From Minisyncoccia bacterium (lineage in GTDB: Bacteria > Patescibacteriota > Minisyncoccia > Phycocordibacterales > UBA2100), in the NCBI GenBank assembly GCA_049297775.1, contig JBAQUX010000023.1, forward strand, positions 18 through 64,017: a stretch of 64,000 nt of DNA, read 5' to 3'. Positions 1,584 through 28,031 of the stretch are shown here, piece by piece. The position numbers were made by a program, and so were the translations under genes. A model generated the notes under the pieces. It was not told the origin of the DNA. It worked only from the letters and a program-made list of their open reading frames with translations, and did no database searches. Position 1 is the first letter of the stretch. The number at the start of each line of letters is the position of its first letter.

Positions 1584-1588
1584 GATAT

Positions 1589-2656
1589 TTACAATAGACG
1601 CTCGAGCATTTGCGGATTAAGAGAGTGTTCGTATGCACTCTCAATATTTATCTCTCCTTTTGCGACAAGCTCCGCAAGTGTTCTGTTCATATCAATCATT
1701 CCTTCTTCAGAGCCTGTTTCGATAATCGTGTTAATTTCATGCGTGCGTTTTTCTCGAATCAAGTTCGCAACAGCTTTATTGTTTATAAGAAGTTCATAGG
1801 CTGGAACCATACCTCCTGAAATTCTTGGAATAAGTCTCTGTGAAAATACACCAGCGAGCGACGCAGAAAGCTGGATGCGTATCTGATCTTGTTGTTCTGC
1901 TGGAAATGTATCAATAATACGGTCAATAGTTTGCGCTGCGTTGTTTGTGTGCAAAGTAGAAAAAACTAAGTGCCCAGTTTCAGCAGCAGTAACTGCTGCA
2001 CCCATAGTATCTGCCCCGCGCATTTCTCCAACGAGTAAGACGTCAATATCCTGACGAAACGCACTGCGTAATGCATTAGGAAAATCTTTTGTATCAACCG
2101 AAACCTCGCGCTGGTCAACGAGTGATTGCTTTGGATCATGCAGGTATTCGATTGGGTCTTCAATCGTGACGATGTGCGCTGCGCGCTCAACGTTAATGAG
2201 GTCTATCATTGCCGCAAGTGTTGTTGTTTTTCCCTGCCCCACTGGACCAACCACAAGAAAGAATCCTTGTTTCTTTCTCGCAAACGTGGTGAGTATTGGT
2301 GGTAAACTCAATTCTTCCAGTGAGCGAATTACTTTTGGAATGCGACGGAGCACAACCGCTGCTGAATTTTTTTGGAAGAATGCGTTACATCGAAAACGGT
2401 CTGTGCCTGGAACTTGATACGAAAAGTCGAGCTCTTGTTCTTGTTTAAAACGAGCCACCTGCTCTGGAGACGCGAGTACTTGAATAAACCCAAGAACATC
2501 TGCAGGGGTAAGTATCGGCTCATTCATCATCGGCACTAAAGAACCGTCCACACGAATTGTCGGTCGTGAATCCGCGGAAAGATGCAAGTCGGAACCGCCC
2601 TCATGCGTTACTGTATTTAAGTATTTGGGTAGATCTTTTTCGTACTGTAATGCCAT
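1589..2656 (-). CDS. pilT: Twitching-motility/retraction ATPase PilT
   Basis: Walker A GPVGQGKTTT. The DLHL motif sits near the N-terminus when the start is taken at MALQYEKDL (2656); the ORF-track start at 2695 is probably an upstream in-frame ATG. PilT/PilU family length and motifs (IEDPIEY, LVGEMRG). Confidence 0.88.
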   Translation of the reverse strand: MALQYEKDLPKYLNTVTHEGGSDLHLSADSRPTIRVDGSLVPMMNEPILTPADVLGFIQVLASPEQVARFKQEQELDFSYQVPGTDRFRCNAFFQKNSAAVVLRRIPKVIRSLEELSLPPILTTFARKKQGFFLVVGPVGQGKTTTLAAMIDLINVERAAHIVTIEDPIEYLHDPKQSLVDQREVSVDTKDFPNALRSAFRQDIDVLLVGEMRGADTMGAAVTAAETGHLVFSTLHTNNAAQTIDRIIDTFPAEQQDQIRIQLSASLAGVFSQRLIPRISGGMVPAYELLINNKAVANLIREKRTHEINTIIETGSEEGMIDMNRTLAELVAKGEINIESAYEHSLNPQMLERLL

Positions 2657-2724
2657 ATGGTAACTATACGTGATGCGCGAGTGAGTGACAATCAACTGCT
2701 CTGCATAAGTCTCAGTGATAATTT

Positions 2725-3114
2725 CTATTTTTGCCAGCCAAGCACCACTTGCTCAATTTTACTCACCATCTCATCTGGGAGTGACTGCGCCTTAATGAAC
2801 TGTCCCGCGACTTTTAAGTCTTTCATTCGAGCAAAATCTTCTGGCTCACTTTGGTTAGAGAGCACAATTATTGGAAGCCCTTCCGCAAGGTGTTCATCTC
2901 GAAGCGTTTTGATGAACTCAAATCCATTCATCTGAGGCATAATTATATCAGCGACTATTATATCTACTCTGAGTCCACCTCGTAATTTTTCTAACGCAAC
3001 CTTAGCGCTCTGACATGGAACCACCACATGCCCTCTCTCAAGGATTTTTGTTGCATAAATATCAACAATGAATTCATCGTCATCGAGAAACAGTATAGTA
3101 AATTTTTTATCCAT
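2725..3114 (-). CDS. Single-domain response regulator (REC/CheY-like receiver only)
   Basis: 129 aa. Acidic pocket LFLDDDE, phospho-acceptor Asp in IIVADIIMP, conserved T/S and K positions of receiver domains. No output domain. Embedded between pilB and pilT. Confidence 0.8.
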   Translation of the reverse strand: MDKKFTILFLDDDEFIVDIYATKILERGHVVVPCQSAKVALEKLRGGLRVDIIVADIIMPQMNGFEFIKTLRDEHLAEGLPIIVLSNQSEPEDFARMKDLKVAGQFIKAQSLPDEMVSKIEQVVLGWQK

Positions 3115-3115
3115 A

Positions 3116-4888
3116 TTATTTATTTTTTTCCTCTTGTAGCGCTACTTCTTCAGCCAGGAGCACTCCACCCAATGTGCTAATCTCCGAAAACGGAATCACT
3201 TTATTGAACGCTTTCAGCATAGCATCTTCACGCATGGTGAGCATACCCTTACTGCGAATAATCTTAAGAATTTCGTCATCACCTTTTCTGTCCAAAATTG
3301 CACGCTCAACTTCGGCACTCATTCCAAATGCCTCGATAACTGCACTTCGTCCTCGCATTCCTGACGCTGACGCAGACGTTGGCTGTGGGTCGTACACAAC
3401 ATTTGGAATAGTGAAACGATATTCTGGCGGTAAATCCTTAATTGAATCTTCCATAAATAAACGCATGCTTGGTGTAACTGGTATTTCTGTTCCAGTTCCT
3501 GGGTGCAATTTACGCACCAATCGCTGTGCCACCGCAAGAATTAATGTTGGCGCAATAAGATAGGGATCAACACCCATATCTATAAGACGAGGAATAACGC
3601 CGACAGAATCGTTTGTGTGAATAGTTGAGAGTACCAAGTGACCAGTAAGCGCGGCTTGAATTGCGAGCTTTGCAGTTTCTGCGTCACGGATTTCTCCCAC
3701 CATGATAATGTCTGGGTCTTGGCGAAGCGCAGTACGCAAACCAGAGGCAAATGTATACCCAATTTCTGGACGCATTTGGGATTGATTAACTCCTTCCATG
3801 TGATACTCAACCGGGTCTTCAAGCGACATCACGTTTTCTGATTCACGATCAAGCTCATTTAACATCGAATACAATGTGGTTGACTTACCGGAACCCGTTG
3901 GACCAGAAACGAGAATAAGGCCATACGGTCTTTCGAGTGCTGTGCGAATGAGATTAAGATTTTTTTGTGAGAGACCGAGGTCAGCGAGCGGTACCACGCC
4001 TTTATTTTTATCCAAGATACGCATCACCACCTTCTCACCTTCTGGTAGTGGAAATGTAGAGACACGAAAGTCAATTTTTCTTCCGCTCACCGTTGCTGAA
4101 AATCTACCATCTTGCGGTTTTCGTCGTTCGTCAAGCCTCAGTGCTGCCAAAACTTTAATACGCGCCACGATTGCCTGTTGTGTATTTTTGGGAAGCATCA
4201 GACTTGTATGCAACGTACCGTCAACACGAAAACGCACACGCACACCCGCCTCGCTTGGCTCTATATGTACGTCAGATGCAGAACCATCTACTGCGTAGCG
4301 CAACACTGTTGCGACGATTTTTATTATCGGTGCATCCTCTTGAAAGTTTTTTGCATCCTTTGGTCCTTGTGCTTGCTTATCAAGTTCGGCCTGAACGTCA
4401 ACTTGGTCACTTGACGCCTCGGTCGCCAATTCATCGAGCGCGTTCCCGACATCTCCAGTAAGCCCTCGATACATGGCGAGCACTTTTTCAAAATCTGCCT
4501 TAGTTATATGAAAAACTTTGTACGGCAAGCCAGCCTTACGGGTAATAAAGTTAAGTGCGTCTACTGCCTCAATGTCATCAGGACTCACAAAACCCACTTC
4601 GAGCACCCCATCTTCAATTCCGAGCGCAACAAACTTATAGTGATTTGCTGATTCTTCTGGAATATTTTGCAAAATTTGCAACGCAATTTTACTATCACCT
4701 ATAGTACGAGTTGGGATACGAACACTGCCACCCTGCTCTGCAGCTAATATTTCTTCATCAGAAAAACCGCGATTACGGAGAGCTGTATCGATATCTATTT
4801 TTTTGGACTCAACCTCTGACCGTACTTCTTCGGCAACTTTGGGTGATATAAGTCCTTGAGCAATAAGTATTGAGAGCGGGTCTTCCAT
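3116..4888 (-). CDS. pilB: Type IV pilus assembly (extension) ATPase PilB/GspE family
   Basis: 590 aa with N-terminal GSPII_E_N-like region. Walker A GPTGSGKSTT, Asp box, Walker B MVGEIRD, His box of secretion ATPases. Confidence 0.9.
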   Translation of the reverse strand: MEDPLSILIAQGLISPKVAEEVRSEVESKKIDIDTALRNRGFSDEEILAAEQGGSVRIPTRTIGDSKIALQILQNIPEESANHYKFVALGIEDGVLEVGFVSPDDIEAVDALNFITRKAGLPYKVFHITKADFEKVLAMYRGLTGDVGNALDELATEASSDQVDVQAELDKQAQGPKDAKNFQEDAPIIKIVATVLRYAVDGSASDVHIEPSEAGVRVRFRVDGTLHTSLMLPKNTQQAIVARIKVLAALRLDERRKPQDGRFSATVSGRKIDFRVSTFPLPEGEKVVMRILDKNKGVVPLADLGLSQKNLNLIRTALERPYGLILVSGPTGSGKSTTLYSMLNELDRESENVMSLEDPVEYHMEGVNQSQMRPEIGYTFASGLRTALRQDPDIIMVGEIRDAETAKLAIQAALTGHLVLSTIHTNDSVGVIPRLIDMGVDPYLIAPTLILAVAQRLVRKLHPGTGTEIPVTPSMRLFMEDSIKDLPPEYRFTIPNVVYDPQPTSASASGMRGRSAVIEAFGMSAEVERAILDRKGDDEILKIIRSKGMLTMREDAMLKAFNKVIPFSEISTLGGVLLAEEVALQEEKNK

Positions 4889-4891
4889 GGC

Positions 4892-5290
4892 TTACTCGGA
4901 GATTTCTTCTTGTGCTCCAGTGCGTGCGCCACGACCTTGAAATTGTACTGGTATTTCCTCAGAAATTATATCGTCATCGTTACCTACAGGGGCAAAAGGA
5001 TTTTTTCGTCCCACCGGCTCAGGAATAATTTGTTGCCCTGTATCTTTAAGCACATTAAACGCTGGATTTTGAAAAATAGTGTCATCTAGCTTAATTGTAC
5101 GCATATCCAATAGTAACTTGAGCACCTCAGAGTCATCATTATTTTCAGTAACTACCTGGCTATTAAGTACGCCATCTGCAGACGATGTACCGAGAGTGGC
5201 ATTTTCTTCTCCGGAATTCATCGAAAGACCATACCAACCTCCGATGATGACAACGATTACTATGACTGCAATTATTATTTTATTGTTCAT
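4892..5290 (-). CDS. Small single-pass membrane protein, PilP-like pilus-assembly accessory (hypothetical)
   Basis: 132 aa, N-terminal TM helix (IIIAVIVIVVIIGGWYGL), acidic C-terminus. Position between pilO and pilB. Assignment by context only. Confidence 0.4.
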   Translation of the reverse strand: MNNKIIIAVIVIVVIIGGWYGLSMNSGEENATLGTSSADGVLNSQVVTENNDDSEVLKLLLDMRTIKLDDTIFQNPAFNVLKDTGQQIIPEPVGRKNPFAPVGNDDDIISEEIPVQFQGRGARTGAQEEISE

Positions 5291-5301
5291 GGTTCAATAT
5301 A

Positions 5302-5958
5302 TTATGGAAGCCAGTATGTTCGTATCGCAACAGTAAATCTATATATTGGGTCTGTGGTATCGCGTGAACCACTTGTTGAAATACTTTGACCCTGAAGTCC
5401 GACGAGCTCTTGCGGAATTGCACCTCCTGCAGGAGCCTGTTTTGCAGTTTCAGACATAGATAATGATACAAGGTCTACAACTCGCAAACTCTGCTCGAGG
5501 TCACGCATAAAACTCACAAAATCGTCATATGTTGATGCCACGCCAAATTCAAGCACCAAGGATTTATATCGCTGGTTTTGTAATGCTGACGCTGCTTCAA
5601 TAGAGCCTGCGACTTGCGTTTTCCCCTTCTCGTCGCCATCTCTACGCACCTGCACGTTTCCAATGCGCAATCCATGCTTGGTCGCAAGCGCATCAAAATC
5701 GAGCACTAAGTGCACGTTATCTACGAAGTCTGGGAGAAATTTTTCAAGACGTTCAGTGTTTGTACCAGTAAGCGTATTATATTTTTGTGAGAGTGCATTA
5801 CCAAGCGCCTGCACTTCTTTTGCCTTAGCTAGACCTTCAGCATATTTGTCCACCTCTTTCTTTTTTGAAAGTGTAGCGTTATATGTAGGCGTTACATATC
5901 CAAAGATAAGACCGCCAGAGACAAGTATCATTATTATTGCAAGTATAAGTTTAGTCAT
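5302..5958 (-). CDS. pilO: Pilus assembly protein PilO-like
   Basis: 218 aa. Short cytoplasmic N-terminus, one TM helix, coiled-coil then periplasmic/extracellular domain. Gene order pilM-N-O. Confidence 0.6.
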   Translation of the reverse strand: MTKLILAIIMILVSGGLIFGYVTPTYNATLSKKKEVDKYAEGLAKAKEVQALGNALSQKYNTLTGTNTERLEKFLPDFVDNVHLVLDFDALATKHGLRIGNVQVRRDGDEKGKTQVAGSIEAASALQNQRYKSLVLEFGVASTYDDFVSFMRDLEQSLRVVDLVSLSMSETAKQAPAGGAIPQELVGLQGQSISTSGSRDTTDPIYRFTVAIRTYWLP

Positions 5959-5971
5959 AATGGTACATTAA

Positions 5972-6787
5972 TTATTCGCTGGTGTTTCCAAATAATCCAT
6001 CTGATGCCGGCTTTCCTGTTTGCGGTTTAGGTAACGGACGAGGTGTTGGCGTGGTTTGTTGTTGCACACCGCCTGCAGGCCTTCGGTTCAAATTTCCTGT
6101 AACGTCCTGGGGAGCTTCTTCTTCAGTGAAAGAACTTTGTGTTGCACTTGTATCATCTAGGGATTCTTCACTTCCTCCATTTTGAGCACTAAGTGCCGCG
6201 GCGACAAGTGATTCAAATTTTACTGTTTCTGGATTTAAATTTAAATTAACTGCGAACGTAACTCCTTGCGCACCGATATCCAAATCTGAGAAAATTGGCT
6301 CTTTAATAGCGTTATGCCTACTAAAAATTGACGCCTGGAGTGCAATACCGTTTACACTCGCTGCCTTCCCTTTCATTTCAACATGCAGGTCGCCTTCTGG
6401 TTTTACCGTATAGTTCACGTTGGTAAATTGTACTGACTTAAGTGTTGTCTGTTCGAGGACCTTAAAAAATATTGAAGGTGCAAGGTGAGCACCAAGTACG
6501 CCGTTTGCAGAACGGATACGCTCGTCGAGTCTCATTATTTTTGTGACGAGTGAAGGTGCAAACGCTCCGCGCGCCTTTTCGAGTTGCGCCTTTTTATCAG
6601 CCAAGTCCTTTGTAACAAACTGTTGATAGAGAAAAACTCCCGCTGAAAGCGTCCCCGCAATCACGAGGGCGATTATTCCCAAAAGCATGACCACGTCAAA
6701 TCCATCACTTCCTCCGTAGTTGCTTTGAGGAGACTCCATTGTAGGGAGTTTTGTGGGGATGAATGATGATTGAATTGGTGATTCCAT
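5972..6787 (-). CDS. pilN: Pilus assembly protein PilN-like with Pro/Thr/Gln-rich C-terminal tail
   Basis: 271 aa, single TM (VVMLLGIIALVIAGTLSAGVFLY) followed by coiled coil. Low-complexity C-terminus QQQTTPTPRPLPKPQTGKP. Immediately downstream of pilM. Confidence 0.6.
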   Translation of the reverse strand: MESPIQSSFIPTKLPTMESPQSNYGGSDGFDVVMLLGIIALVIAGTLSAGVFLYQQFVTKDLADKKAQLEKARGAFAPSLVTKIMRLDERIRSANGVLGAHLAPSIFFKVLEQTTLKSVQFTNVNYTVKPEGDLHVEMKGKAASVNGIALQASIFSRHNAIKEPIFSDLDIGAQGVTFAVNLNLNPETVKFESLVAAALSAQNGGSEESLDDTSATQSSFTEEEAPQDVTGNLNRRPAGGVQQQTTPTPRPLPKPQTGKPASDGLFGNTSE

Positions 6788-6810
6788 ACGTTTTAATTAT
6801 TCCACATAAT

Positions 6811-7971
6811 TTATCCCTGCTGGATAATGCGCATCGCTGCACCTACCGCAACTGAAAATTCTGGGCCTACTTCTTTAAGTACATCGTGCAAAAATGCTGG
6901 ACCTTCTACGTGATCAAATGGCTGAGCCAATTGGACCTGGGCACCAAGTCTTTCTTGCGCATACGGAATTAAGTCTTTGATAGTCGCACCTCCTCCTGTC
7001 AAAATAACATGAGGTACATTTTTCTGATACTTTTTCCCGTAGTTCAATAATACTTTATGTACCTCTGGGAATATACGTCCGAGTGTTGATAACAATGCGG
7101 TGCGCACTGGAGGCGTCGGCATTGCTGTTCCGGTTCCTGCTTCTTTAGTCATCGGCACGTCAATGCTCAGCCCCTGCTCCTTCTTCATTCGCTCAGCTTT
7201 TTCAAAATCCCAACTCATCGATCTACTAATCGAAAGGGTCATATCTTGGCCACCTTGATTGATGGTATGCGACATGCGTACGATACCTCGCTCAATAATA
7301 GATACTTTTGTTGTTGAGGCACCGATGTCTACAACCATGATTGGTGCAACTCCGTGCCCCAAAGAAGATCGCGCAGTACTGAATATTTCAAGTTCATAAA
7401 ACTGTGGCTGAATATTAAGCCCTTGCATAATTGACTGAAAATTACTGAGTGTGTCGTTATGTATCGCAACGAGTAAAACCTCAATGACATCCTTCTTTCG
7501 CTCTCCCGTATCAGGCTGTGTCGCATTTTCATATTCATCTTTTGGAATAGCAAACCAATCAAGGGAAATTTCATTCATAGGAACTGGAATGTACTTACGA
7601 GCCTCAAGAGGTACGGCACGTTTGAGCGCATCATCGCTCATAGGTGGCAATTCAATAACCGAAGTCAGGCTTGCTGAGAACGGAATAGCGACTCCGGCTA
7701 TAGTAGCCGTCATGTTTGATTCTTTCATGAGGTCCTGAATTGCTTCTCCTATTTTTTGTGCAGGAAGTCGTGCCACTTGCCCAGTCTGCAACTCAGCAAA
7801 TGGACCAAGGGCAATTGCGCCATATGTCTCAAGTATTGCACGACCGTGTTCTCTGCGTAATTGAACAATTTTTACTGAAGATGATCCAATATCTATACCA
7901 AGCACACTCCCAGTACCACCGATGGAAGGCAGTCCACTGAGTCTTTTTGTAATTGCATCAAATAAACCCAT
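6811..7971 (-). CDS. pilM: Type IV pilus assembly ATPase-fold protein PilM (actin-like)
   Basis: N-terminal GIDIGSSSVKIVQL actin/FtsA-like phosphate-1 motif and second half with DIGASTTKVSI. Start taken at MGLFDAITKRL (7971); the ORF track extends to 8025 through non-conserved residues. Confidence 0.85.
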   Translation of the reverse strand: MGLFDAITKRLSGLPSIGGTGSVLGIDIGSSSVKIVQLRREHGRAILETYGAIALGPFAELQTGQVARLPAQKIGEAIQDLMKESNMTATIAGVAIPFSASLTSVIELPPMSDDALKRAVPLEARKYIPVPMNEISLDWFAIPKDEYENATQPDTGERKKDVIEVLLVAIHNDTLSNFQSIMQGLNIQPQFYELEIFSTARSSLGHGVAPIMVVDIGASTTKVSIIERGIVRMSHTINQGGQDMTLSISRSMSWDFEKAERMKKEQGLSIDVPMTKEAGTGTAMPTPPVRTALLSTLGRIFPEVHKVLLNYGKKYQKNVPHVILTGGGATIKDLIPYAQERLGAQVQLAQPFDHVEGPAFLHDVLKEVGPEFSVAVGAAMRIIQQG

Positions 7972-8019
7972 ATAGTAGATGCATTGTACCATACTCACCT
8001 GTAGAATGTTGAGTACACT

Positions 8020-8664
8020 ATGCACTTTTTACGCAAATATATAGCGAGTTTTATCGACTGTGTACTGCCCCCAAGAGAGGCTGAGCTTCAACTGCGTAAA
8101 CTCACACCAAATAACTTTCCATTCATAAAAAGTGAATTCAAAACTGAGAGTGGCATGAGCGTGCTTACACTCTCTGTATTCACCGATGAGCGCGTTCGGC
8201 TCGCTATTCATGAATTAAAATTTCATAAAAATTCTCACGCTGCATCGCTGTACAGCGAAAATGTACATGACGCGCTACAAGAAGTATGCTCAAGAAGTAA
8301 CTTAGAGTATTTAATTGTCCCCATACCTCTTCATAAAAAGAGGTACCGCGCTCGCGGATACAATCAGGTAGTGACTATTATCATGTCTGCGCATTCCAAG
8401 GGTACGGAGCATCCGCTCAACACAATTTTCTCAGCAGACGCACTTACTCGCATTCGCGAAACAAAACCCCAAACAGAACTATCACGCGAGTCTCGTTTAA
8501 AAAATCTACATCACGCCTTTTCCGCTTCGTCTGAAGTGCGTGATAGAAATGTCATTGTTGTTGATGACGTGTACACGACCGGTGCTACATGTGCAGAGGC
8601 ACAGCGAGCACTCATGTACGCAGGAGCACGCAGTGTCACCTGTATTGTTTTGGCAAGGGCTTGA
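8020..8664 (+). CDS. comFC: ComF family protein (ComFC-like phosphoribosyltransferase-fold competence protein)
   Basis: C-terminal PRTase motif VIVVDDVYTTGAT typical of ComF/GntX. Divergent from the pil operon. The real start may be an internal Met (e.g. MSVLTLS at 8155) to leave room for divergent promoters. Confidence 0.75.
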   Translation: MHFLRKYIASFIDCVLPPREAELQLRKLTPNNFPFIKSEFKTESGMSVLTLSVFTDERVRLAIHELKFHKNSHAASLYSENVHDALQEVCSRSNLEYLIVPIPLHKKRYRARGYNQVVTIIMSAHSKGTEHPLNTIFSADALTRIRETKPQTELSRESRLKNLHHAFSASSEVRDRNVIVVDDVYTTGATCAEAQRALMYAGARSVTCIVLARA

Positions 8665-8753: not shown

Positions 8754-9242
8754 TTGGTACCCCGATTGAAAATCGCAGTACACCATATACTTATGAACCC
8801 AGTGCATCCATATCGTCGCGTAGCCCTCATACTTCTTGGAGGATTTTTCCTTTGGGGTGCAGTATCTTATTACTGGTATGCCTGTGGCATCAAAAACCTC
8901 TGCAGTACACAGCAGGTTACGATTACTCAAGCCACTCATGAGGTTGCAAAAATTCCAGATGATATACATGTAACCCAGGTACTCGTCTACGAAAAGAACG
9001 AGTGTGCACCGTACCTTACTGGCTCAGTAGGTGTAGCAACTCGAAACAACCCTGCCGACGTGTCCCTCGTTGAACAATTTTTATCTGTATACCAGAACGA
9101 AAATATTGTTATTGATGGTGTGTATACCAGTGATGATATTGCGGGAATTCGCAGGTTTCAAAATGCGCAAGGCATTTCAGCGACTGGTAATGTATTCAAT
9201 AAAACACGTGAGGCAATAAATGCATTAGTGTGTGCCGAATAA
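8754..9242 (+). CDS. Membrane-anchored protein with C-terminal PG_binding_1 (peptidoglycan-binding) domain; cassette copy 1, gene A
   Basis: N-terminal TM helix followed by SYYWYACGIKNLC motif, shared with the 21586 paralog. C-terminal LVEQFLSV...DGVYTSDDIAGIRRFQNAQGISATGNV matches the PG_binding_1 consensus. Probable start at MNPVHPY (8793). Confidence 0.7.
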   Translation: MVPRLKIAVHHILMNPVHPYRRVALILLGGFFLWGAVSYYWYACGIKNLCSTQQVTITQATHEVAKIPDDIHVTQVLVYEKNECAPYLTGSVGVATRNNPADVSLVEQFLSVYQNENIVIDGVYTSDDIAGIRRFQNAQGISATGNVFNKTREAINALVCAE

Positions 9243-9270
9243 TTATAATTATTAAAAAATAAATTTATTT

Positions 9271-9723
9271 ATGTTTACTCAACCAGTAACCCAAGCTTAC
9301 GACCTCACCGACGCCACGTGGGAAATAATTGTAATGCTTACTGTCTCTTTTTTGCTCGGTTGGTTTTTTCGATATCTTTGGTCTCGTACAGATGCTGAAC
9401 AACAGATAGTTTACGTTCCCCAGACACCCGCTGTTCCAGACAGACCTGAACGTTATAGAAAATATTCAGAAAATGATTTACAAATCGTAGAAGGTATTGG
9501 TCCAAAAATTGAAGAACTTTTAAAGACTAATGGTGTATATTCATGGGAAGATTTAGCACGTTCGTCAATTGAGAGTCTCCGTGCCATTCTCCAAAAAGGA
9601 GGTGAGCGCTTCCAAATGCATGACCCGAGTAGCTGGGCTGACCAAGCAGCACTTGCTGTTGAAGGAAAATGGGCGGATTTAGAAGAATATCAAACCCTAC
9701 TTCCCGGCGGACGGATGCGATAA
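9271..9723 (+). CDS. Membrane-anchored helix-hairpin-helix (GIGPK) domain protein, ComEA-like candidate; cassette copy 1, gene B
   Basis: TM helix (IIVMLTVSFLLGWFF) then DLQIVEGIGPKIEELLKTNGVYSWEDLA HhH motif and conserved FQMHD...WA.QA.LA..GKW tail. Paralog of 22254-22718. Confidence 0.65.
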   Translation: MFTQPVTQAYDLTDATWEIIVMLTVSFLLGWFFRYLWSRTDAEQQIVYVPQTPAVPDRPERYRKYSENDLQIVEGIGPKIEELLKTNGVYSWEDLARSSIESLRAILQKGGERFQMHDPSSWADQAALAVEGKWADLEEYQTLLPGGRMR

Positions 9724-9727
9724 CAAT

Positions 9728-9753
9728 AAGGCGCCCTATGGCGCCTTTTGTAA
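9728..9753 (+). terminator. Rho-independent terminator (AAGGCGCC-CTAT-GGCGCCTT + TTTG)
   Basis: 8-bp GC-rich stem, 4-nt loop, U-rich tail directly after the stop of the 9271-9723 gene. Confidence 0.6.
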
Positions 9754-9771
9754 AACTACTCTCGTAAGTGC

Positions 9772-10566
9772 TTACTGTACGGTAATTGTTTTTTGTGACA
9801 CAACTGGCGCCTGAGATACATACCCGCGAATAGTTCTAAAACTCACGGTGTAACTGCCTCGTGATTGATATATGTGTGTAAGTTGTCTATTTATCTGATC
9901 TGACTCACAACCACTATTACCGCCCTCCCGAGATACTATTGGTGAACCATCTCCCCAATCAAGCGAATACGATGTGCAGGTAGTCCCATTTACAGCAAAA
10001 AACGCAGACACCGCATGTGGTGCAGGACCACTTGCAGGTTCGACAGTGAACGAAAAGTTATCTACGGGCGCCACTCCAGTCTTTACCGGAGTACGTGTGG
10101 TTGTTCCTGTACTTGTAGTCTTCGCTTGGGTTACCGAAGTTCCTGACGCACATGCAGCCTTCATAACATCGGCTGTACGTTTATCAATAGAACCTGTAAC
10201 AGATAGGTGTGACAAAAGTTGCCAACGCGAAACTGCATCTTTAGTAATACCTCCATAATATCCAGTACCATACTCATCTGACAAAACGCCTTGTTCAATT
10301 AGAAATCCTTGAAGTGCGATCACATCTTGCCCTGATGCGCCCACTTGTAACGAACGATTCACTGGCAAGCACTCCCCGCTTCCAGTGGTTCCGGTGTTCG
10401 TTCCATCAGGATCAATACCAATTGCTCGGAGTTGCACTTTTATAGCATCGACGATTTTGATAAGCCGAGCAATTTCAGAAAGTATTTCATCTCGTGTCAT
10501 CGCTGAGGTCATAGCGGGCACAACAACAAGCACTGTAATAATAAGGGCTGAAAGTGATTTATACAT
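9772..10566 (-). CDS. Secreted protein: signal peptide + PG_binding_1 domain + C-terminal PKD-like domain
   Basis: N-terminal signal/TM. IALQGFLIEQGVL...GTGYYGGITKDAVSRWQ is a PG_binding_1 motif. C-terminal LDWGDGS...HIY...GSYTV matches the PKD motif (WDFGDG...HxY...GxYxV). Confidence 0.7.
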   Translation of the reverse strand: MYKSLSALIITVLVVVPAMTSAMTRDEILSEIARLIKIVDAIKVQLRAIGIDPDGTNTGTTGSGECLPVNRSLQVGASGQDVIALQGFLIEQGVLSDEYGTGYYGGITKDAVSRWQLLSHLSVTGSIDKRTADVMKAACASGTSVTQAKTTSTGTTTRTPVKTGVAPVDNFSFTVEPASGPAPHAVSAFFAVNGTTCTSYSLDWGDGSPIVSREGGNSGCESDQINRQLTHIYQSRGSYTVSFRTIRGYVSQAPVVSQKTITVQ

Positions 10567-10614
10567 ATCGTTAGTATATCGCGATATTACAAATACTTGA
10601 GCACCACCAGTGGA

Positions 10615-11634
10615 TTACCGCACAGTAATCTGCGCCTGATTAATAACTGGTAACTTTGAAAGTACATTTTGTCCCTGTTTCAGCGTAACGGTATAGATGC
10701 CAGGCCTTGTGTACACATGCGGAATATAGAGCGTAATTGCTTTTGCCGTACACGTAGCAGGCTTCCCAGCATCAAATGCTTCAGGTGCTGTGCCATCTCC
10801 CCAACTAATTTCGTATGAAGTACACGTAGTACCATTCACCGCAAACGAAAGGCCAATCGTAAGTGGTGCACTTCCCGACGCAGGCTTTATAAAGAATGAG
10901 TACCGTTCTGATTTTCGCTCTGACCCCGCATTCGCGCCACCACATTTTGCAATCCTGTCTCGCGTCGCACCATTTGTGGTACCACTTTGCGTCAGACCCT
11001 TTGTTCGTTGCCATGACAGCAAAGCTCGCTCAGTTGATGGACCGAACGCTCCTGTAATAAGTGAGGTGCTTAACGTGCCTTCACGAGCAAGGAAACATTG
11101 AAGCGTTGCAACATCTCCGAGTACCCCTTGCGCATCAACTGACCCGCGGGCAATAACATTTGCGATAACTGGGCAATCAGGGACATTTGTGCACGAAACT
11201 AATTTACGTGGAATGATTGGCTCACAGCTTTGATTTTTATTTATATAGGCACGTGTCTTTTCCTCAACAATGCCATATCCAGTTTTACACGATAACCCGG
11301 GCTTTACGATGTTAAACTTTTTTTGTAGTCGCCGCACCGCAAGCTCAGTTTCTTCACTATATTCACCCGTAACTAAACCACTAGGATATAGTGAGGGAAA
11401 ATCACGCAAGTATTTTTGTAACCGAGTTACCTCACCATTTGTAGTACTGTCACTCACACCAAAATAGAGAAGCTCCTTGAAAGCGGGACATTTAGTTTTG
11501 GCATCTTCTGTTGTTGCTGTCTCCTCACCTTTCATTTCAGTTGATTTTCCAGTAACAGGAGCGACTCGTGTTTGCGCAGACACCGTCTGACCGAGAAGCA
11601 CGCATATACATACCGCAAAAAGTATTCGAATCAT
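10615..11634 (-). CDS. Secreted protein: two PG_binding_1 repeats + C-terminal PKD-like domain (paralog of 9772-10566)
   Basis: Signal peptide MIRILFAVCICVLLGQTVSA. LQKYLRDFPSLYPSGLVTGEYSEETELAVRRLQ and VATLQCFLAREGTL...GAFGPSTERALLSWQ motifs. C-terminal ISWGDGTAPE...HVYTRPGIYTVTL PKD signature. Confidence 0.7.
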   Translation of the reverse strand: MIRILFAVCICVLLGQTVSAQTRVAPVTGKSTEMKGEETATTEDAKTKCPAFKELLYFGVSDSTTNGEVTRLQKYLRDFPSLYPSGLVTGEYSEETELAVRRLQKKFNIVKPGLSCKTGYGIVEEKTRAYINKNQSCEPIIPRKLVSCTNVPDCPVIANVIARGSVDAQGVLGDVATLQCFLAREGTLSTSLITGAFGPSTERALLSWQRTKGLTQSGTTNGATRDRIAKCGGANAGSERKSERYSFFIKPASGSAPLTIGLSFAVNGTTCTSYEISWGDGTAPEAFDAGKPATCTAKAITLYIPHVYTRPGIYTVTLKQGQNVLSKLPVINQAQITVR

Positions 11635-11691
11635 GAAGTAAGTATCGCATGCATTAGTACGCAATCAATTACCACACTGTTTATAATAGGA

Positions 11692-12300: not shown

Positions 12301-12729
12301 CTACAGCGTCGTTCCGTCTTCCATCTGCAATGATTGCTTGAACTGCTCAATAACTTCTGGATGCTTCCCTGCTTTACAGTCTACAAGATACGCATCGGAT
12401 GCAGCACCGTCAGTAAACGTAGTAAATGCAAGCGAATCGTCACAAATCTGGTTGATATCAAGCTTCATTCCGACAGGAGCTTCTTCAACTTGTTCATACT
12501 TTGGCTGATTATTATCCATATCAAACGACCCATTCTTCATGCCAGAAAACAATGCCCCACTAATTAGAAACGCGAAAAGTGCAATAAAAGGAATATAGAG
12601 AATGAGACTTCCCACAAATGAGTACCCGAGCACTCCAAGGGCACGCTTTATAAATGAATCACTATTTAACCACCCTTTGTAACTATATGTCTCACCTACC
12701 GGTTGTGCATTTTCTGGATTCATACTCAT
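12301..12729 (-). CDS. Hypothetical membrane protein
   Basis: 142 aa, two predicted TM helices (LILYIPFIALFAFLISGALF). No recognisable domain. Confidence 0.4.
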   Translation of the reverse strand: MSMNPENAQPVGETYSYKGWLNSDSFIKRALGVLGYSFVGSLILYIPFIALFAFLISGALFSGMKNGSFDMDNNQPKYEQVEEAPVGMKLDINQICDDSLAFTTFTDGAASDAYLVDCKAGKHPEVIEQFKQSLQMEDGTTL

Positions 12730-12773: not shown

Positions 12774-13259
12774 TTGTTGTATACTTTTCCTATGAAATTA
12801 GGTCTGCGTATTTTTGCCACCGTATTACTGCTCTTACTGACTGTTATTTTTGTACCTCCTCACACGCAATCAGCTCCACAAACTCGTGCACCTTCTGCAC
12901 CGTCACGCGAAAATATACGAAAACCACAAACTGAATTGCATGCTACTGAAAAAACCATAGCGTATCTACGGGAGCATGGCTCACTTCCTGACTATTACCT
13001 CACGAAGCGAGAGGCATCGAAGTTAGGTTGGGTACCATCACGGGGTAACCTGTGTGAAGTCGCCCCCGGTATGTATATTGGAGGAGATATCTTCACTAAT
13101 GCACAAAAACTACTGCCGACGGCCAAAAACCGAAAGTGGTATGAGGCAGATTTTGATTATGCGTGTGGAAACAGAAATGCGCGAAGAATCTTATTCTCGA
13201 ATGATGGACTCATATATATAACTTACGACCATTATAAAACGGTAACTCCCGCACCATGA
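12774..13259 (+). CDS. Secreted barnase-family ribonuclease (guanyl-specific RNase, microbial RNase N1/T1 superfamily)
   Basis: Signal peptide, then TIAYLREHGSLPDYYLTKREASKLGWVPSRGNLCEVAPGMYIGGDIFTNAQKLLP...RKWYEADFDYACGNRNARRILFSNDGLIYITYDHYKTV. Near-colinear with Bacillus barnase (DYLQTYHKLPDNYITKSEAQALGWVASKGNLADVAPGKSIGGDIFSN...RTWREADINYTSGFRNSDRILYSSDWLIYKTTDHYQTF), including catalytic Glu/Arg/His positions. Confidence 0.85.
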   Translation: MLYTFPMKLGLRIFATVLLLLLTVIFVPPHTQSAPQTRAPSAPSRENIRKPQTELHATEKTIAYLREHGSLPDYYLTKREASKLGWVPSRGNLCEVAPGMYIGGDIFTNAQKLLPTAKNRKWYEADFDYACGNRNARRILFSNDGLIYITYDHYKTVTPAP

Positions 13260-13501
13260 AAAAACTAGTACTTACCATTGACTGCGCGAAAACAAAAACA
13301 GCAACATCTATCCATCAAAGTATTGCGTCACAACTGAGCTTCCCTACATATTACGGTCATAATCTTGACGCATTACATGATTGCCTTTCTGACACACTGC
13401 TAGAACATGCAGTTATTTTAAAATGGAAAGACACCGCGCATTCGAAGAAAATTATTTCAATAAAAGAAATAAAAGCTCTGTTGAAAACAGCATTAGCGTA
13501 G
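13256..13501 (+). CDS. Barstar-like ribonuclease inhibitor (immunity protein)
   Basis: 81 aa. LSFPTYYGHNLDALHDCLSD...VILKWKD matches barstar ([20 protein letters not shown]...LVLEWRQ). Overlaps the barnase stop by 4 nt (ATGA), so translationally coupled. Confidence 0.8.
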   Translation: MKKLVLTIDCAKTKTATSIHQSIASQLSFPTYYGHNLDALHDCLSDTLLEHAVILKWKDTAHSKKIISIKEIKALLKTALA

Positions 13502-13520: not shown

Positions 13521-13925
13521 TCAGTCGATAAGATTCTGTGCTTTTAAGTCGTCAAATAGTAATTGGTCAACAAGAGAAACATCACTTCTTTTCGAGTAGT
13601 CAAACCAGCCCATCTTTTCCACTTCAGCACTCGGCTTTAGTTCGCCATCGTATTGACCGGTGTAGCATGTGATGCGTACCATCGTTCCTTCCGGCTTTCC
13701 ATGAGCTTGAGCTTCGTAAGTGCCGAAATATTGAATAGATTCTGGAATTACATCAACGAGTAGTTCTTCTTTTATTTCGCGAATCAATGCGTGCTGGTCT
13801 GTTTCACCTCCTTCTCTTTTGCCACCCGGTACATACCATTTATCTTTCCCGAAACTGCACGTCTCCAAAATTTTTCTATTTTGAATCTCGATAAAAGCTA
13901 GTTTGTCAATATAATTCTTTTCCAT
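13521..13925 (-). CDS. NUDIX hydrolase
   Basis: Nudix box GGKREGGETDQHALIREIKEELLVDV (GX5EX7REUXEEXGU). Confidence 0.8.
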   Translation of the reverse strand: MEKNYIDKLAFIEIQNRKILETCSFGKDKWYVPGGKREGGETDQHALIREIKEELLVDVIPESIQYFGTYEAQAHGKPEGTMVRITCYTGQYDGELKPSAEVEKMGWFDYSKRSDVSLVDQLLFDDLKAQNLID

Positions 13926-13986
13926 ACAACAAAGTATACTCGAATAAATGAGGAAGCACGTAGCGAAACGCTGCCTCTAGTCTTTG

Positions 13987-14071
13987 CGGAGAGAGTGAGA
14001 TTCGAACTCACGGTTCCTTGCGGAACGACGGTTTAGTAAACCGTTGATTTAAACCACTCATCCATCTCTCC
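13987..14071 (-). tRNA. Type II (long variable arm) tRNA, Ser-like, apparent anticodon ACU (unusual)
   Basis: Minus-strand sequence GGAGAGA-TG-GAT-GAGTGGTTTAA-ATC-A-ACGGT-TTACTAA-ACCGT-CGTTCCGCAAGGAACCG-GTGAG-TTCGAAT-CTCAC-TCTCTCC-G. 7-bp acceptor, 3-bp D stem, canonical T loop GTTCGAATC, long variable arm, G73 discriminator as in tRNA-Ser. Anticodon loop U33-ACU-A37. CCA not encoded. Confidence 0.7.
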
Positions 14072-14139: not shown

Positions 14140-14231
<92 letters not shown>

Positions 14232-20104: not shown

Positions 20105-20388
20105 GCTTATTTCGTTACTTGTTAATAGCTAAGTATGACGTGAAAAAATGAATGTGCAATACCTTTCATTCATGAACACTGTGCACAGCACATATCCACA
20201 GGATAATGCTCATGTACGCACCAGTACGAGCACTTGCTGTTAAGCCATTTTCTATTGGACAATAAGAGACATGTTAATTATGTCCTTTATATAAGCCACG
20301 GAATTCGTGCCAGGTCTTGCATTTTAGATACATTTTTTGTAGGGTATTGACATACACTCACTTTAACAGTGTACCTATAACTACATAT

Positions 20389-21414
20389 ATGACATCATCT
20401 TTTGCATCGAGAGCGACAGTGGCAACACTCAGTGTTCTCGGTATGACACTCTTTGCATTGCTCAGCACTGCCCCATATGCTTTTGCTGAAGATGGTGGCG
20501 GGAGCACACTTGGAAACGGACCCATCGCAGGTACTGTTATATATATGCCAGAAAATATCTATACTGGTTCAGGACTTATTCCACTTGGAAACGGTGGCGC
20601 CGCAGGTACGAGCAGTGTTGGTTTGGGAGGTGCAGCATGCGCACCATATATTCAGTCCTTCAACTCTATTGGCGATCGCGGTGAATCAGTAATTGCACTT
20701 CAGAGATTTCTTAATCAATATGAAGGTGCAGGACTTCCTCTTACTGGATATTTTGGTACTCGTACTGAATCAGCAGTGAAACATTTCCAAGCACGCTATG
20801 ACATCAGACCTACTGGAAGACAGCTTATACTCACCACGACAAAGATAAATGAGCTCGTCTGCCAATTTGGAGGACATGGTGTCGGAAAACCACCAGTACA
20901 AAAAAGTACGGCACTCTGCCCTGCATACCTCGCCATGACTACGACACCGACAGTGCACAGTGCTGAAGTCGCGAAATTGCAGCTTTTCTTAAACGTATAC
21001 GTCAATGCGAAAATACCACTCACTGGATTTTACGGACCTCAAACTAAAGACGCAGTATTGTTCTTTGAGACCGGCCACAAACTTCCTTCCCCTGACGGAC
21101 GCATCGATGTAGATACAGTAAAAAAAATTAATGACCTGTACTGTGCATACGGTGGTAAAACAGTAACGGCAGTTCCTAAAATAGTTTCTGTTAAACAAGT
21201 AGTGATCACGCCTGTGTCTACAGCCGTACCTACTGTTTCAATAACTCAAAACACTGTAGCGTCTGACACATCGTCACAGACCGCAGGAGTAGTACTTGGT
21301 GATGCTGTAGAAAACACAGCACCGACACCTGCACCATTTAAGCGACCAGCCGTAATCGTTGGTATCCTCGCTGCACTACTTGCTGCTGGATTCGCCTTTC
21401 GTAAGACTGCATAG
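20389..21414 (+). CDS. Secreted/anchored protein with two PG_binding_1 domains and C-terminal hydrophobic anchor
   Basis: Signal peptide MTSSFASRATVATLSVLGMTLFALLSTAPYAFA. IALQRFLNQYEGAGLPLTGYFGTRTESAVKHFQ and VAKLQLFLNVYVNAKIPLTGFYGPQTKDAVLFFE motifs. C-terminal AVIVGILAALLAAGFAFRKTA hydrophobic anchor (sortase-like/TM). Confidence 0.65.
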   Translation: MTSSFASRATVATLSVLGMTLFALLSTAPYAFAEDGGGSTLGNGPIAGTVIYMPENIYTGSGLIPLGNGGAAGTSSVGLGGAACAPYIQSFNSIGDRGESVIALQRFLNQYEGAGLPLTGYFGTRTESAVKHFQARYDIRPTGRQLILTTTKINELVCQFGGHGVGKPPVQKSTALCPAYLAMTTTPTVHSAEVAKLQLFLNVYVNAKIPLTGFYGPQTKDAVLFFETGHKLPSPDGRIDVDTVKKINDLYCAYGGKTVTAVPKIVSVKQVVITPVSTAVPTVSITQNTVASDTSSQTAGVVLGDAVENTAPTPAPFKRPAVIVGILAALLAAGFAFRKTA

Positions 21415-27687: not shown

Positions 27688-27780
27688 ATATATGTATTGT
27701 ATACCCTGCATAGAAAAAAGTGGAGTTTCGTGTGCACAGTAGTCCGTTTCTCTCGCAAGGCTCTCAAGCCTAAGCAAATA

Positions 27781-27948: not shown

Positions 27949-27957
27949 AAATAAAGG

Positions 27958-28031
27958 TCCACCCTCTTGGACTCGAACCAAGGACCGCGGAGGTATAAGC
28001 TCCGTGCTCTAACCAACTGAGCTAAGGGTGG
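27958..28031 (-). tRNA. tRNA-Ile (anticodon UAU)
   Basis: CCACCCT-TA-GCTC-AGTTGGTTA-GAGC-A-CGGAG-CTTATAC-CTCCG-CGGTC-CTTGG-TTCGAGT-CCAAG-AGGGTGG-A. Anticodon loop C-U-UAU-A-C. CCA not fully encoded (ACCT). Confidence 0.8.

Follow-up and report, generated by a model that had tools for sequence, protein, structure and literature searches.

Two overlapping genes on the forward strand of the window (the whole 64,000-nucleotide stretch of DNA analysed here, from a Minisyncoccia MAG) almost certainly encode a barnase-type RNase and its barstar-type inhibitor. The wider reading, that these genes form an operon for an exported endoribonuclease and an intracellular inhibitor that together serve nutrient salvage from extracellular RNA, is in our view probably correct, albeit held with clearly less confidence than the identity of the pair alone.

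The RNase catalytic domain

The barnase-type catalytic domain comprises residues 53–155 of the RNase precursor plus the TGA stop codon (12948..13259, forward strand), as recognised by Pfam, phmmer, BLASTP and AF2/Foldseek. It matches the Pfam family Ribonuclease (PF00545, microbial ribonucleases of the N1/T1 superfamily) with 40.1 bits (cut-off 24), and a phmmer search against PDB sequences identified barnase and binase with E-values of 1e-29 to 9e-34 and an ungapped alignment of 97 residues. A preliminary description of this region had noted an almost residue-for-residue alignment with barnase, and indeed, for the C-terminal ~100 residues, BLASTP aligned 95 residues at 57% identity without any gap (E 1e-38). 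The AF2 model has pLDDT values above 90 across most of the domain, and this model (not an experimental structure) superimposes on the barnase mutant A43C/S80C (1bne) with a TM-score of 0.94, normalised to barnase, and an rmsd of 1.2 Å over 106 columns. Comparison with about 50 barnase and binase chains gave TM-scores of 0.88–0.94 (0.71 for one fusion chain) and rmsd values of 1.2–1.8 Å. Judged from sequence, the RNase is a barnase-type enzyme, the similarity being far beyond chance.

The fold and the catalytic set are the same as those of barnase from Bacillus amyloliquefaciens and binase from B. pumilus (PDB 1a2p, 1brs, 1bgs and 1gou). The catalytic residues Glu73 (general base) and His102 (general acid) of barnase, which had been singled out for checking, are both present as Glu118 and His147 (numbering of the 155-aa precursor), and Lys72, Arg128, Arg132 and Tyr148 correspond to K27, R83, R87 and Y103. 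All six are invariant in alignment A1. Among the 120 nearest RNase relatives, K27, E73, R83, R87 and Y103 are kept in all 120, and H102 in 119. Two cysteines, Cys88 and Cys125, are found at the positions of barnase residues 43 and 80, and this pair is present in 119 of the 120 nearest relatives, as would suit the oxidising conditions outside the cell. Whereas it is a natural feature of the RNase in the window, in barnase it is confined to the engineered mutant 1bne; no paper on the A43C/S80C mutant was found in the literature searched.

A further departure from barnase concerns the base-recognition loop, which is linked to guanyl preference and in which Ser57-Asn58-Arg59-Glu60 of barnase reads Thr-Asn-Ala-Gln, such that Ala104-Gln105 replace Arg59-Glu60 while Asn58 is kept. 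Glu60 of barnase takes part in guanine recognition. Among the 120 nearest RNases, Glu60 is replaced by Gln in 106, and Arg59 is lost in nine. The nearest named relatives are RNases from Bacteroidota (Cloacibacterium, Niastella and a MAG with locus L001), with 51–66% identity, which share the Cys43/Cys80 pair, Thr57, mostly Gln60, and an N-terminal hydrophobic segment followed by a long low-complexity spacer, but which keep Arg59.

Probable start site and putative promoter of the RNase gene

The preliminary description had taken the RNase gene to start at a TTG codon, giving a protein of 161 aa (12774..13259, forward strand). However, a -10-like box, TATACT, could be identified from its motif at 12780..12785 (forward strand), downstream of this TTG and 6 nt before an ATG at 12792. 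In the window, -10-like hexamers ending 4–10 nt before the start codon precede 11 of the 44 genes, as compared to 1.3 expected from the background rate, and an SD-like motif was found for just one of the 44. The position of the box between TTG and ATG, combined with this leaderless pattern, indicates that the TTG start is probably wrong. The same box lies ahead of the RNase gene in the relatives L008 and L011, homologues of the RNase open as M-(2–7 aa)-K/R-hydrophobic, and the NCBI record of the protein begins at the ATG and has 155 aa. The position of the box and the NCBI start led us to drop TTG 12774, and the true start is most likely ATG 12792 (ORF 12792..13259, forward strand, 155-aa precursor). 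The six extra upstream codons (12774..12791, forward strand), which fall ahead of the -10 box or inside it, are probably untranslated. From the motif position, the RNase mRNA appears to be leaderless, with its 5' end at or beside the start codon, as is the pattern across the genome. No paper on leaderless expression in these bacteria was found in the literature searched.

The predicted export region

Residues 1–27 of the precursor (12792..12872, forward strand) are predicted to form a Sec signal peptide with an n-region MKLGLR, a 15-residue h-region IFATVLLLLLTVIFV and a c-region PPHTQS, with candidate cleavage between TQS and AP. This n/h/c architecture and a site compatible with the -3/-1 rule were found with a hydropathy and -3/-1 script, i.e. 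by simple rules, and the AF2 model has a helix over residues 3–19. An equivalent hydrophobic N-terminus is present in all close RNase relatives. The preliminary description had assigned a signal peptide to the RNase, naming its absence as grounds for refutation; the predicted architecture is there. The script found no lipobox in the N-terminus, and a lipoprotein reading was rejected on that basis.

The predicted signal peptide is followed by a disordered linker or propeptide rich in Pro, Ser, Ala and Gln (residues 28–52; 12873..12947, forward strand), with pLDDT values below 50 over residues 25–45. Both length and sequence of this segment vary among RNase relatives. It occupies the position of the propeptide of the Bacillus enzymes (PMC5021464), and the barnase precursor has the same layout of signal peptide and propeptide-like spacer.

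A short barstar-family inhibitor

The second ORF (13256..13501, forward strand) encodes an 81-aa short form of the barstar family, as identified by Pfam, a PDB match and hhalign. It matches Pfam family Barstar (PF01337) with 63.5 bits (cut-off 23.4), it retrieves barstar from PDB sequences by phmmer with an E-value of 2e-10, and it is 38% identical to barstar over 66 residues in BLASTP (E 6e-18). An hhalign comparison of the short clade with canonical barstars gave a probability of 99.7% (E 9e-27), the alignment stopping at helix alpha4. The core motif YYGxNLDALxDCL, by which the ORF had already been recognised as a barstar homologue, is present as YYGHNLDALHDCL and is common to barstar and the inhibitor; its Tyr32, Asp38 and Asp42 correspond to Y29, D35 and D39 of helix 2, the helix that plugs the active site. 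Asp35 and Asp39 are invariant across all alignments (A2, A3, A5 and A7–A9), and Tyr29 is substituted in many members. The product is identical in four independent assemblies. No hydrophobic N-terminus was found in the inhibitor, which suggests that it is cytoplasmic.

Compared to barstar (89–90 aa), the inhibitor lacks several elements. His41 takes the place of Trp38, a residue which in barstar contacts Arg59 of barnase. The chain stops opposite barstar Arg75 and is thus without Glu76, Glu80 and the beta3 strand, having 24 residues after strand beta2 against 36 in barstar. Its AF2 model, of moderate confidence (pLDDT 71), shows b1-a1-a2-b2 followed by one long helix, in total two strands and three helices, and matches barstar by Foldseek with a TM-score of just 0.45–0.56. 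The complete barstar fold, a three-stranded parallel sheet with four helices, is therefore not present; the absence of beta3 follows from chain length alone, and at a pLDDT of 71 the exact fold of the inhibitor is uncertain. In the one partner inhibitor of the Bacteroidota RNases that was examined (L001, 97 aa), Trp38, alpha4 and beta3 are all kept.

Gene overlap and proposed translational coupling

The inhibitor ATG (13256–13258) overlaps the RNase TGA (13257–13259) in an ATGA start/stop overlap (13256..13259, forward strand), and direct reading of the junction, gcaccATGAaaa, confirmed the overlap that had been reported. Neither an SD motif nor a -10 box was found upstream of the inhibitor ATG. 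This, together with the overlap itself and the absence of an SD motif from 43 of the 44 genes, leads us to propose the overlap as a coupling site at which translation of the inhibitor depends on that of the RNase. No intrinsic terminator was found after the inhibitor gene, terminator-like hits occurring only inside coding sequences and no more often than in shuffled sequences; the inhibitor stop lies 19 nt from the stop of a convergent NUDIX gene. The overlapping arrangement differs from that of barnase and binase, for which an operon of RNase and inhibitor is "not characteristic" (PMC5021464).

Relatives, inheritance and neighbourhood

The same two-gene module was found in the four closest relatives that were looked up (L008–L011) and in the Bacteroidota MAG L001, i.e. 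five in all, and the order of RNase then inhibitor is kept in each despite differing neighbourhoods. The 4-nt overlap recurs in L008 and L001, and gaps of 1–17 nt separate the genes in L009–L011. L008 shares the whole upstream block, with an RNase that is 74% identical over the aligning 65% of the query, and this shared block suggests vertical inheritance under selection. A 142-aa membrane protein encoded divergently upstream is homologous only to the neighbour in L008, with an identity of about 52–53% (52% over 50 residues); since it is absent beside the module in L009–L011, it was rejected as a third component and ascribed to lineage synteny. A leaderless-start signature common to L008, L010 and L011 hints at similar source organisms for these three, L009 being ambiguous. 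Both genes already carry family-level names at NCBI (ribonuclease domain-containing protein and barstar family protein, from a Minisyncoccia MAG), so that, with a module that recurs in relatives, the pair is less unusual than the preliminary description implied. The host, a Patescibacteria (Minisyncoccia) MAG where that of barnase is a Bacillus, does have the reduced genome that had been mentioned.

Within the window, no second copies of the pair were found, and a protein search of genome contigs with one protein alone gave only three distant loci. The pair shows no compositional anomaly, its GC content being unremarkable, and no phage match; plasmid matches were distant only, in Bacillus and Clostridium. 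For these reasons, and in view of the upstream synteny with L008, a genomic island or recent transfer was rejected.

The window also encodes several proteins of nucleotide-pool metabolism (a PRTase, Ham1, two NUDIX proteins, PurA and PurH), in keeping with a salvage role of the pair; these are housekeeping genes, however, and their proximity to the pair may be meaningless. Beside the pair, no extracellular 3'-nucleotidase, cyclic phosphodiesterase or nucleoside transporter was found. tRNA-Ser genes flank the locus.

Proposed function and alternative readings

We propose the following sequence of events. Transcription would start just after the TATACT box, judging from its position, to give a leaderless mRNA that is translated from ATG 12792. 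The 155-aa precursor would be directed to the Sec translocon by its 27-residue signal peptide, which precedes the disordered 25-residue linker or propeptide. Ribosomes ending at the TGA (13257–13259) would reinitiate at ATG 13256, such that synthesis of the inhibitor accompanies all synthesis of the RNase. In the cytoplasm, by homology to the barnase-barstar complex, the inhibitor would plug the active site of whatever RNase has folded ahead of export, with Tyr32, Asp38 and Asp42 of its helix-2 motif facing Lys72, Arg128, Arg132 and His147 of the RNase; tight inhibition by an 81-aa protein without Trp38, Glu76 and the last strand is assumed here. Outside the cell, a disulfide between Cys88 and Cys125, equivalent in nature to the 43-80 bridge engineered into barnase, would probably stabilise the RNase, and Glu118 and His147 would, as in its homologues, act as acid-base pair in cleaving RNA via a 2',3'-cyclic phosphate to 3'-phosphates.

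The most likely physiological role is digestion of extracellular RNA for salvage of nucleotides or phosphate, in line with a published hypothesis. From RNA of the environment or a host, an organism of limited biosynthesis could in this way obtain nucleotides, nucleobases or phosphate. We favour nutrient scavenging on the strength of two precedents. Balifase, a barnase homologue of Bacillus licheniformis, is encoded in one operon with its inhibitor, and phosphate starvation induces it (PMC5021464). Among 28 Patescibacteria MAGs, extracellular nucleases have been predicted in 15 and extracellular RNases in three, and nucleobase salvage has been proposed (PMC11495043). The balifase-YrdF operon combines a secreted barnase-type RNase with a barstar-orthologous inhibitor (PMC5021464), an arrangement also seen for the pair in the window and in L001 and L008–L011. 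It differs from the pair described here in its full-length barstar orthologue, its neighbourhood of phosphorus and carbon metabolism genes and its measured induction by phosphate starvation. Use of the RNase products in salvage would need a 3'-nucleotidase or cyclic phosphodiesterase and a nucleoside transporter. In the literature searched, no paper was found that connects Patescibacteria or the CPR to barnase or barstar.

The preliminary description had suggested an antagonistic or host-directed function, in which the secreted RNase would be a weapon and the inhibitor would confer immunity against intoxication by self or siblings. The order of toxin then immunity gene, with overlap, does resemble that of bacteriocin and polymorphic-toxin cassettes, where a barnase-like or BECR-fold C-terminal domain is followed by a small cognate inhibitor; the organism is moreover probably an epibiont, type IV pili and a VirD4-like coupling protein are encoded in the same window, and module neighbourhoods differ between relatives. 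A cytoplasmic inhibitor, however, is required by any secreted barnase-type enzyme and does not discriminate between the two functions. Unlike polymorphic toxins, the RNase is a stand-alone, predicted secreted domain, consisting of signal peptide, short linker and catalytic domain, and no delivery, receptor-binding, translocation, LXG, Rhs or CDI-type region was found in it. The pilus cluster ends 4.7 kb from the pair with unrelated genes between, and no secretion-system gene adjoins the pair. No route is known by which a free 11-kDa RNase could enter bacterial or archaeal cells that have a wall. With neither delivery domain, nor secretion-system or polymorphic-toxin context, nor a match to defence systems, we consider a role in antagonism unlikely.

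It is also rather improbable that the RNase is tethered by an uncleaved signal-anchor and a Pro/Ser-rich stalk and acts at the cell surface or the interface of epibiont and host. Such tethering would be sensible for a very small cell, and Bacillus plasmids have annotated genes in which a barnase domain is joined to cell-surface (S-layer homology) modules. The candidate cleavage site is not a canonical AXA and has two prolines before it, and the continuous helix over residues 3–19 leads into a disordered spacer of 25–30 residues. Against this, the hydrophobic core measures just 15 residues between Arg6 and Pro22-Pro23, which is signal-peptide-like and short for a membrane anchor, and Bacillus barnase-type precursors likewise have a signal peptide and then a propeptide here (PMC5021464). 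An intracellular toxin-antitoxin or abortive-infection system, with the RNase acting inside its producer once the inhibitor is lost upon phage attack or stress, appears highly improbable. An RNase toxin with an adjacent protein inhibitor is a common design in such systems, and the convergent NUDIX gene next to the pair has a weak match to the PADLOC candidate family PDC-S07 (E 4e-12), but this match is to a generic domain, phage homologues were absent, and the predicted N-terminal export signal and the conserved Cys pair of the RNase suit an extracellular location. The inhibitor, encoded downstream and consisting of a Barstar domain only, lacks the autoregulatory DNA-binding domain of typical type II antitoxins. 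Searches with PADLOC and NCBIfam models gave no match for either protein, and a defence or toxin-antitoxin assignment was rejected for this reason.

A possible minimal-barstar clade and significance

RNases without Arg59 form a clade of nine among the 120 nearest, and the clade of short inhibitors comprises nine full-length matches in a set of 1.84 billion representative proteins. Since the partners of Arg59-less RNases lack Trp38, Glu76 and the last beta-strand, a remodelled interface is suggested. Glu76 of barstar and Arg59 of barnase are interface charges (PMC8837141). We tentatively put forward, as a possibility that is more doubtful than not, that the barnase-barstar interface has been rebuilt in this clade, the loss of Arg59 being paralleled by the inhibitor's loss of Trp38, Glu76, Glu80 and beta3, leaving a "minimal barstar" of ~81–85 residues (two strands, three helices) in which inhibition would depend solely on the helix bearing Asp35 and Asp39. 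Were this correct, the two proteins would have co-evolved in nature and might fail to cross-react with their Bacillus counterparts, and the inhibitor would be the smallest functional form of a protein-protein inhibitor known from textbooks.

The pair is a recognisable and already annotated barnase-barstar operon, of which the short inhibitor and the Arg59-less clade are mildly novel; it overturns no existing view and makes no long-standing open question testable. Its value for protein science is modest, in that the 43-80 disulfide engineered in barnase is probably a natural feature of this branch of the family, and the Arg59-less, short-barstar clade could offer a compact inhibitor pair with which to study how interfaces evolve, or to serve the many uses of barnase-barstar in biotechnology. 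For the biology of Patescibacteria, in which secreted RNases have been tallied rather than described and are proposed to feed nucleotide salvage in organisms of limited biosynthesis, the pair provides a specific example.

Identity of the gene pair

Two overlapping ORFs on the forward strand, one running from 12774 (TTG) or 12792 (ATG) to 13259 and the other from 13256 to 13501, encode the RNase and its inhibitor, each present as a single copy within the window. Their location agrees with the preliminary description, and the ATGA overlap mentioned there can be read directly at the junction, gcaccATGAaaa, where the inhibitor ATG and the RNase TGA share four bases. Pfam assigns PF00545 (ribonuclease; 40.1 bits, cut-off 24) to the RNase and PF01337 (Barstar; 63.5 bits, cut-off 23.4) to the inhibitor. 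A comparison with PDB sequences aligned 97 residues of the RNase without gaps to barnase and binase (E 1e-29 to 9e-34), and matched the inhibitor to barstar (E 2e-10). In BLASTP, wild-type barnase is 57% identical to the RNase over 95 residues with 0 gaps, in line with the nearly residue-for-residue alignment claimed previously, and wild-type barstar is 38% identical to the inhibitor over 66 residues. The ORFs being in place and supported by Pfam, PDB and BLASTP matches, the presence of a barnase/barstar-type pair at 12774–13501 is confirmed, far beyond chance. Family-level annotation already exists for both proteins: the NCBI records, both from Minisyncoccia bacterium GCA_049296875.1, are named 'MAG: ribonuclease domain-containing protein' and 'MAG: barstar family protein'.

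Catalytic domain and predicted export of the RNase

The residues Lys27, Glu73, Arg83, Arg87, His102 and Tyr103 (barnase numbering) are invariant in an alignment of the RNase with ten relatives, barnase and binase, so that both catalytic residues singled out for checking, Glu73 and His102, are kept. When the comparison is extended to the 120 nearest database relatives, His102 is present in 119 and the other five residues in all 120. In the AlphaFold2 model, most of the catalytic domain has pLDDT >90. Superposition on some 50 barnase and binase chains gave target-normalised TM-scores of mostly 0.9–0.94 and rmsd of 1.2–1.8 Å.

The top PDB match, by sequence as well as by structure, is 1bne, an engineered barnase A43C/S80C disulfide mutant, because the RNase naturally has cysteines at barnase positions 43 and 80 (Cys88 and Cys125 in 155-residue numbering; codons 13053–13055 and 13164–13166). 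A 43–80 disulfide stabilises barnase. The Bacillus enzymes lack this pair, which is natural in the RNase but engineered in 1bne and 6pqk. Judged from the aligned sequences, the pair is a trait of the whole non-Bacillus branch and not of the window gene alone, since it recurs in 119/120 nearest relatives (Bacteroidota and Patescibacteria-like). The second-best match, P0002 (276 aa, NCBI, on a 3.8-kb contig), carries a signal peptide and two barnase domains in tandem; one domain keeps the catalytic His (DDHY), while the other has Asp instead (SDDY), lacks the Cys pair, and could be inactive, serving for RNA binding or as a decoy.

The RNase agrees with the barnase family in every testable feature of sequence and structure, except at Arg59-Glu60 in the base-recognition loop, where it has Ala-Gln. 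Barnase Glu60 serves guanine recognition; given the substitution, any base preference assigned to the RNase is a prediction.

The N-terminus consists of MKLGLR, a 15-residue hydrophobic core and PPHTQS|AP, with no lipobox. It thus has the proportions of the signal peptide claimed in the preliminary description, cleavage being a prediction. It is followed by a Pro/Ser/Ala-rich segment of 25 residues, disordered in the AlphaFold2 model, which sits at the propeptide position of the Bacillus enzymes (PMC5021464). Export is well supported as a predicted property, and the N-terminal segment may be cleaved off or may act as an anchor.

A short barstar variant

The helix-2 motif of barstar is intact in the inhibitor (FPTYYGHNLDALHDCL), as the earlier reading of a barstar core had it, and inhibitor Tyr32, Asp38 and Asp42 correspond to barstar Tyr29, Asp35 and Asp39. 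In contrast, barstar Trp38 is replaced by His, and only 24 residues follow strand beta2, compared to 36 in barstar. Profile-profile alignment (probability 99.7%) places the end of the chain opposite barstar Arg75, so that Glu76, Glu80 and strand beta3 are lacking. The AlphaFold2 model (pLDDT 71) predicts a b1-a1-a2-b2 fold followed by one long helix; its best structural matches in the PDB are all barstar, with TM-scores of only 0.45–0.56. The 81-residue length does not reflect a truncation artefact, since the identical product is found in four independent assemblies.

A phmmer search of 1.84 billion representative proteins retrieved 797 barstar relatives at E ≤ 1e-3. Full-length alignment with the inhibitor was confined to nine of them (E ≤ 1e-10); most others, among the matches listed, align only with the N-terminal 50–60 residues. 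The short clade to which the inhibitor belongs shares the motifs IDC and WKDTxxS, and its members have Trp38 replaced by His, Lys, Arg or Val. What sets the inhibitor apart from canonical barstar is the lack of the Trp38/Glu76 contacts and of a complete three-stranded fold. Its homology to barstar is nevertheless clear, and 'short family variant' describes it best.

Possible co-variation of RNase and inhibitor

Barnase Arg59 contacts barstar Trp38. Arg59 belongs to the positive charges of the interface, whose counterparts in barstar are Asp35, Asp39 and Glu76 (PMC8837141). Of the 120 nearest RNases, 111 retain Arg59; the other nine, a clade that holds the window RNase, have Ala, Ser or Gly. 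In all five members of this clade with a readable partner inhibitor (the window pair and the related loci L008, L009, L010 and L011) Trp38 is missing, and in four of the five beta3 is clearly missing as well. In contrast, Arg59 is kept in a Bacteroidota relative (L001), where the overlapping partner is a 97-residue barstar with Trp38, helix alpha4 and beta3; in L002, a relative from the Lachnospiraceae, residue 59 is Lys and the partner retains Trp38. Loss of Arg59 together with Trp38 and beta3 would fit a remodelled interface. The co-variation probably rests on a single evolutionary event and is a lead rather than a result; a minimal barnase–barstar interface, co-evolved in the short clade, is a tentative idea, on balance doubtful.

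Expression signals and proposed coupling

Only one of the 44 confidently placed window genes has a Shine-Dalgarno-like motif. A -10-like hexamer, often TATACT, ends 4–10 nt before the start codon of 11/44 genes, compared to about 1.3 expected from background frequency, which suggests that a large share of the transcription units in the window may be leaderless mRNAs. Such boxes lie at 12780–12785, 6 nt before the RNase ATG at 12792, and, as TATACT or TATAAT-like variants, upstream of 13925 (NUDIX gene, reverse strand), 17349, 23312, 39156, 10566 and 60626. The signature also appears in loci L008, L010 and L011, the same TATACT box preceding the RNase gene in L008 and L011. Our literature search found no paper describing it in Patescibacteria/CPR. 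The TTG at 12774, the RNase start in the preliminary description, is unlikely because it precedes the probable transcription start, the TATACT box lying downstream of it; the NCBI protein (155 aa) begins at the ATG.

Neither a -10-like box nor a Shine-Dalgarno motif was found upstream of the inhibitor start, and its translation would therefore most plausibly require ribosomes that have just finished the RNase ORF at the overlapping TGA. The ATGA overlap would thereby gain a functional role, with synthesis of the RNase entailing synthesis of the inhibitor.

Genomic context and distribution

Minisyncoccia is a class within the phylum Minisyncoccota, which we take to be the formal name now in use for CPR/Patescibacteria, and the window looks like part of such a genome. 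It encodes a type IV pilus cluster (372–8025, reverse strand; PilC, PilT-like, response regulator, PilB/MshE, PilO-like and PilM), SmpB, tmRNA, five PG_binding_1 (peptidoglycan-binding) proteins, of which two include PKD-like parts (8754–11664, 20317–21414 and 25486–27777), and, at the far end, a 946-residue VirD4/TraG-like coupling protein (60639–63479, reverse strand). Both the pilus cluster and the coupling protein are surface equipment typical of epibionts among the Patescibacteria. Scattered across the window are nucleotide genes (PRTase, Ham1, two NUDIX, PurA and PurH).

Divergent from the RNase gene lies a gene for a 142-residue protein without family match (12301–12729, reverse strand), with a conserved N-terminal motif G-x-TYSYKGWL-SDSF-KR followed by a hydrophobic segment; the neighbour in L008 has this motif too and is 52% identical over 50 residues. 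A NUDIX hydrolase gene (13521–13925, reverse strand) is convergent with the inhibitor gene, the stop codons being 19 nt apart; its match to the PADLOC candidate defence family PDC-S07 (E 4e-12) probably reflects just the generic NUDIX domain. The pair is followed at 0.5 kb by two divergent tRNA-Ser genes (13986–14071, reverse; 14140–14231, forward). One has an ordinary GCT anticodon; the other, a good tRNA by its Rfam score of 57.6 bits, has ACT (loop UU-ACU-AA), and such an A34 tRNA is an unusual choice for serine among bacteria. The window also holds a tRNA-Ile gene with anticodon TAT (UAU; 27956–28031, reverse strand), a type uncommon in bacteria, which would read AUA directly, without a lysidine-modified CAU tRNA.

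GC content near the pair is ordinary. A barstar gene lies directly downstream of the RNase gene in 4/4 closest relatives looked up, in neighbourhoods that otherwise differ. L008 shares the upstream block too: its counterpart of the PG_binding_1 gene at 10615–11664, equally placed with respect to the RNase operon, is 53% identical, and the RNases are 74% identical across the 65% of the query that aligns. Such conservation speaks for vertical inheritance, with selection on the RNase. The putative taxonomy of the related contigs is taken from shared start-site signatures alone. No phage matches to the pair were found, plasmid matches were only distant ones in Bacillus and Clostridium, and neither protein matched anti-phage defence or NCBIfam models.

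Proposed mechanism and role

We propose that transcription of the operon gives a leaderless mRNA and, from sequence features, that the RNase precursor leaves the cell via Sec and that coupled translation yields a cytoplasmic inhibitor. By homology with barnase–barstar, helix 2 of the inhibitor (Asp38, Asp42) would enter the active site of prematurely folded RNase and block it. The exported enzyme, probably disulfide-stabilised to judge by its sequence, would, again by homology, cleave RNA outside the cell by Glu118/His147 acid-base catalysis, leaving 3'-phosphate products.

An antagonistic or host-directed toxin, as put forward in the preliminary description, is conceivable for an epibiont but has no positive support: the RNase has no delivery domain, no secretion system is linked to the pair, and no way for a free RNase to enter a cell is known. 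The presence of the inhibitor does not favour a toxin, because any secreted barnase needs a cytoplasmic inhibitor, whatever its purpose. The two genes are arranged as in balifase–YrdF, not as in barnase and binase, and balifase, an operon-organised Bacillus homologue, is induced by phosphate starvation (PMC5021464). Secreted nucleases have been reported in 15 of 28 Patescibacteria MAGs, with extracellular RNases in three, and a scavenging hypothesis was proposed there (PMC11495043). Because of that report and the phosphate-starvation induction of balifase, we favour, by analogy, a physiological role in which the RNase would scavenge extracellular RNA for nucleotides or phosphate.
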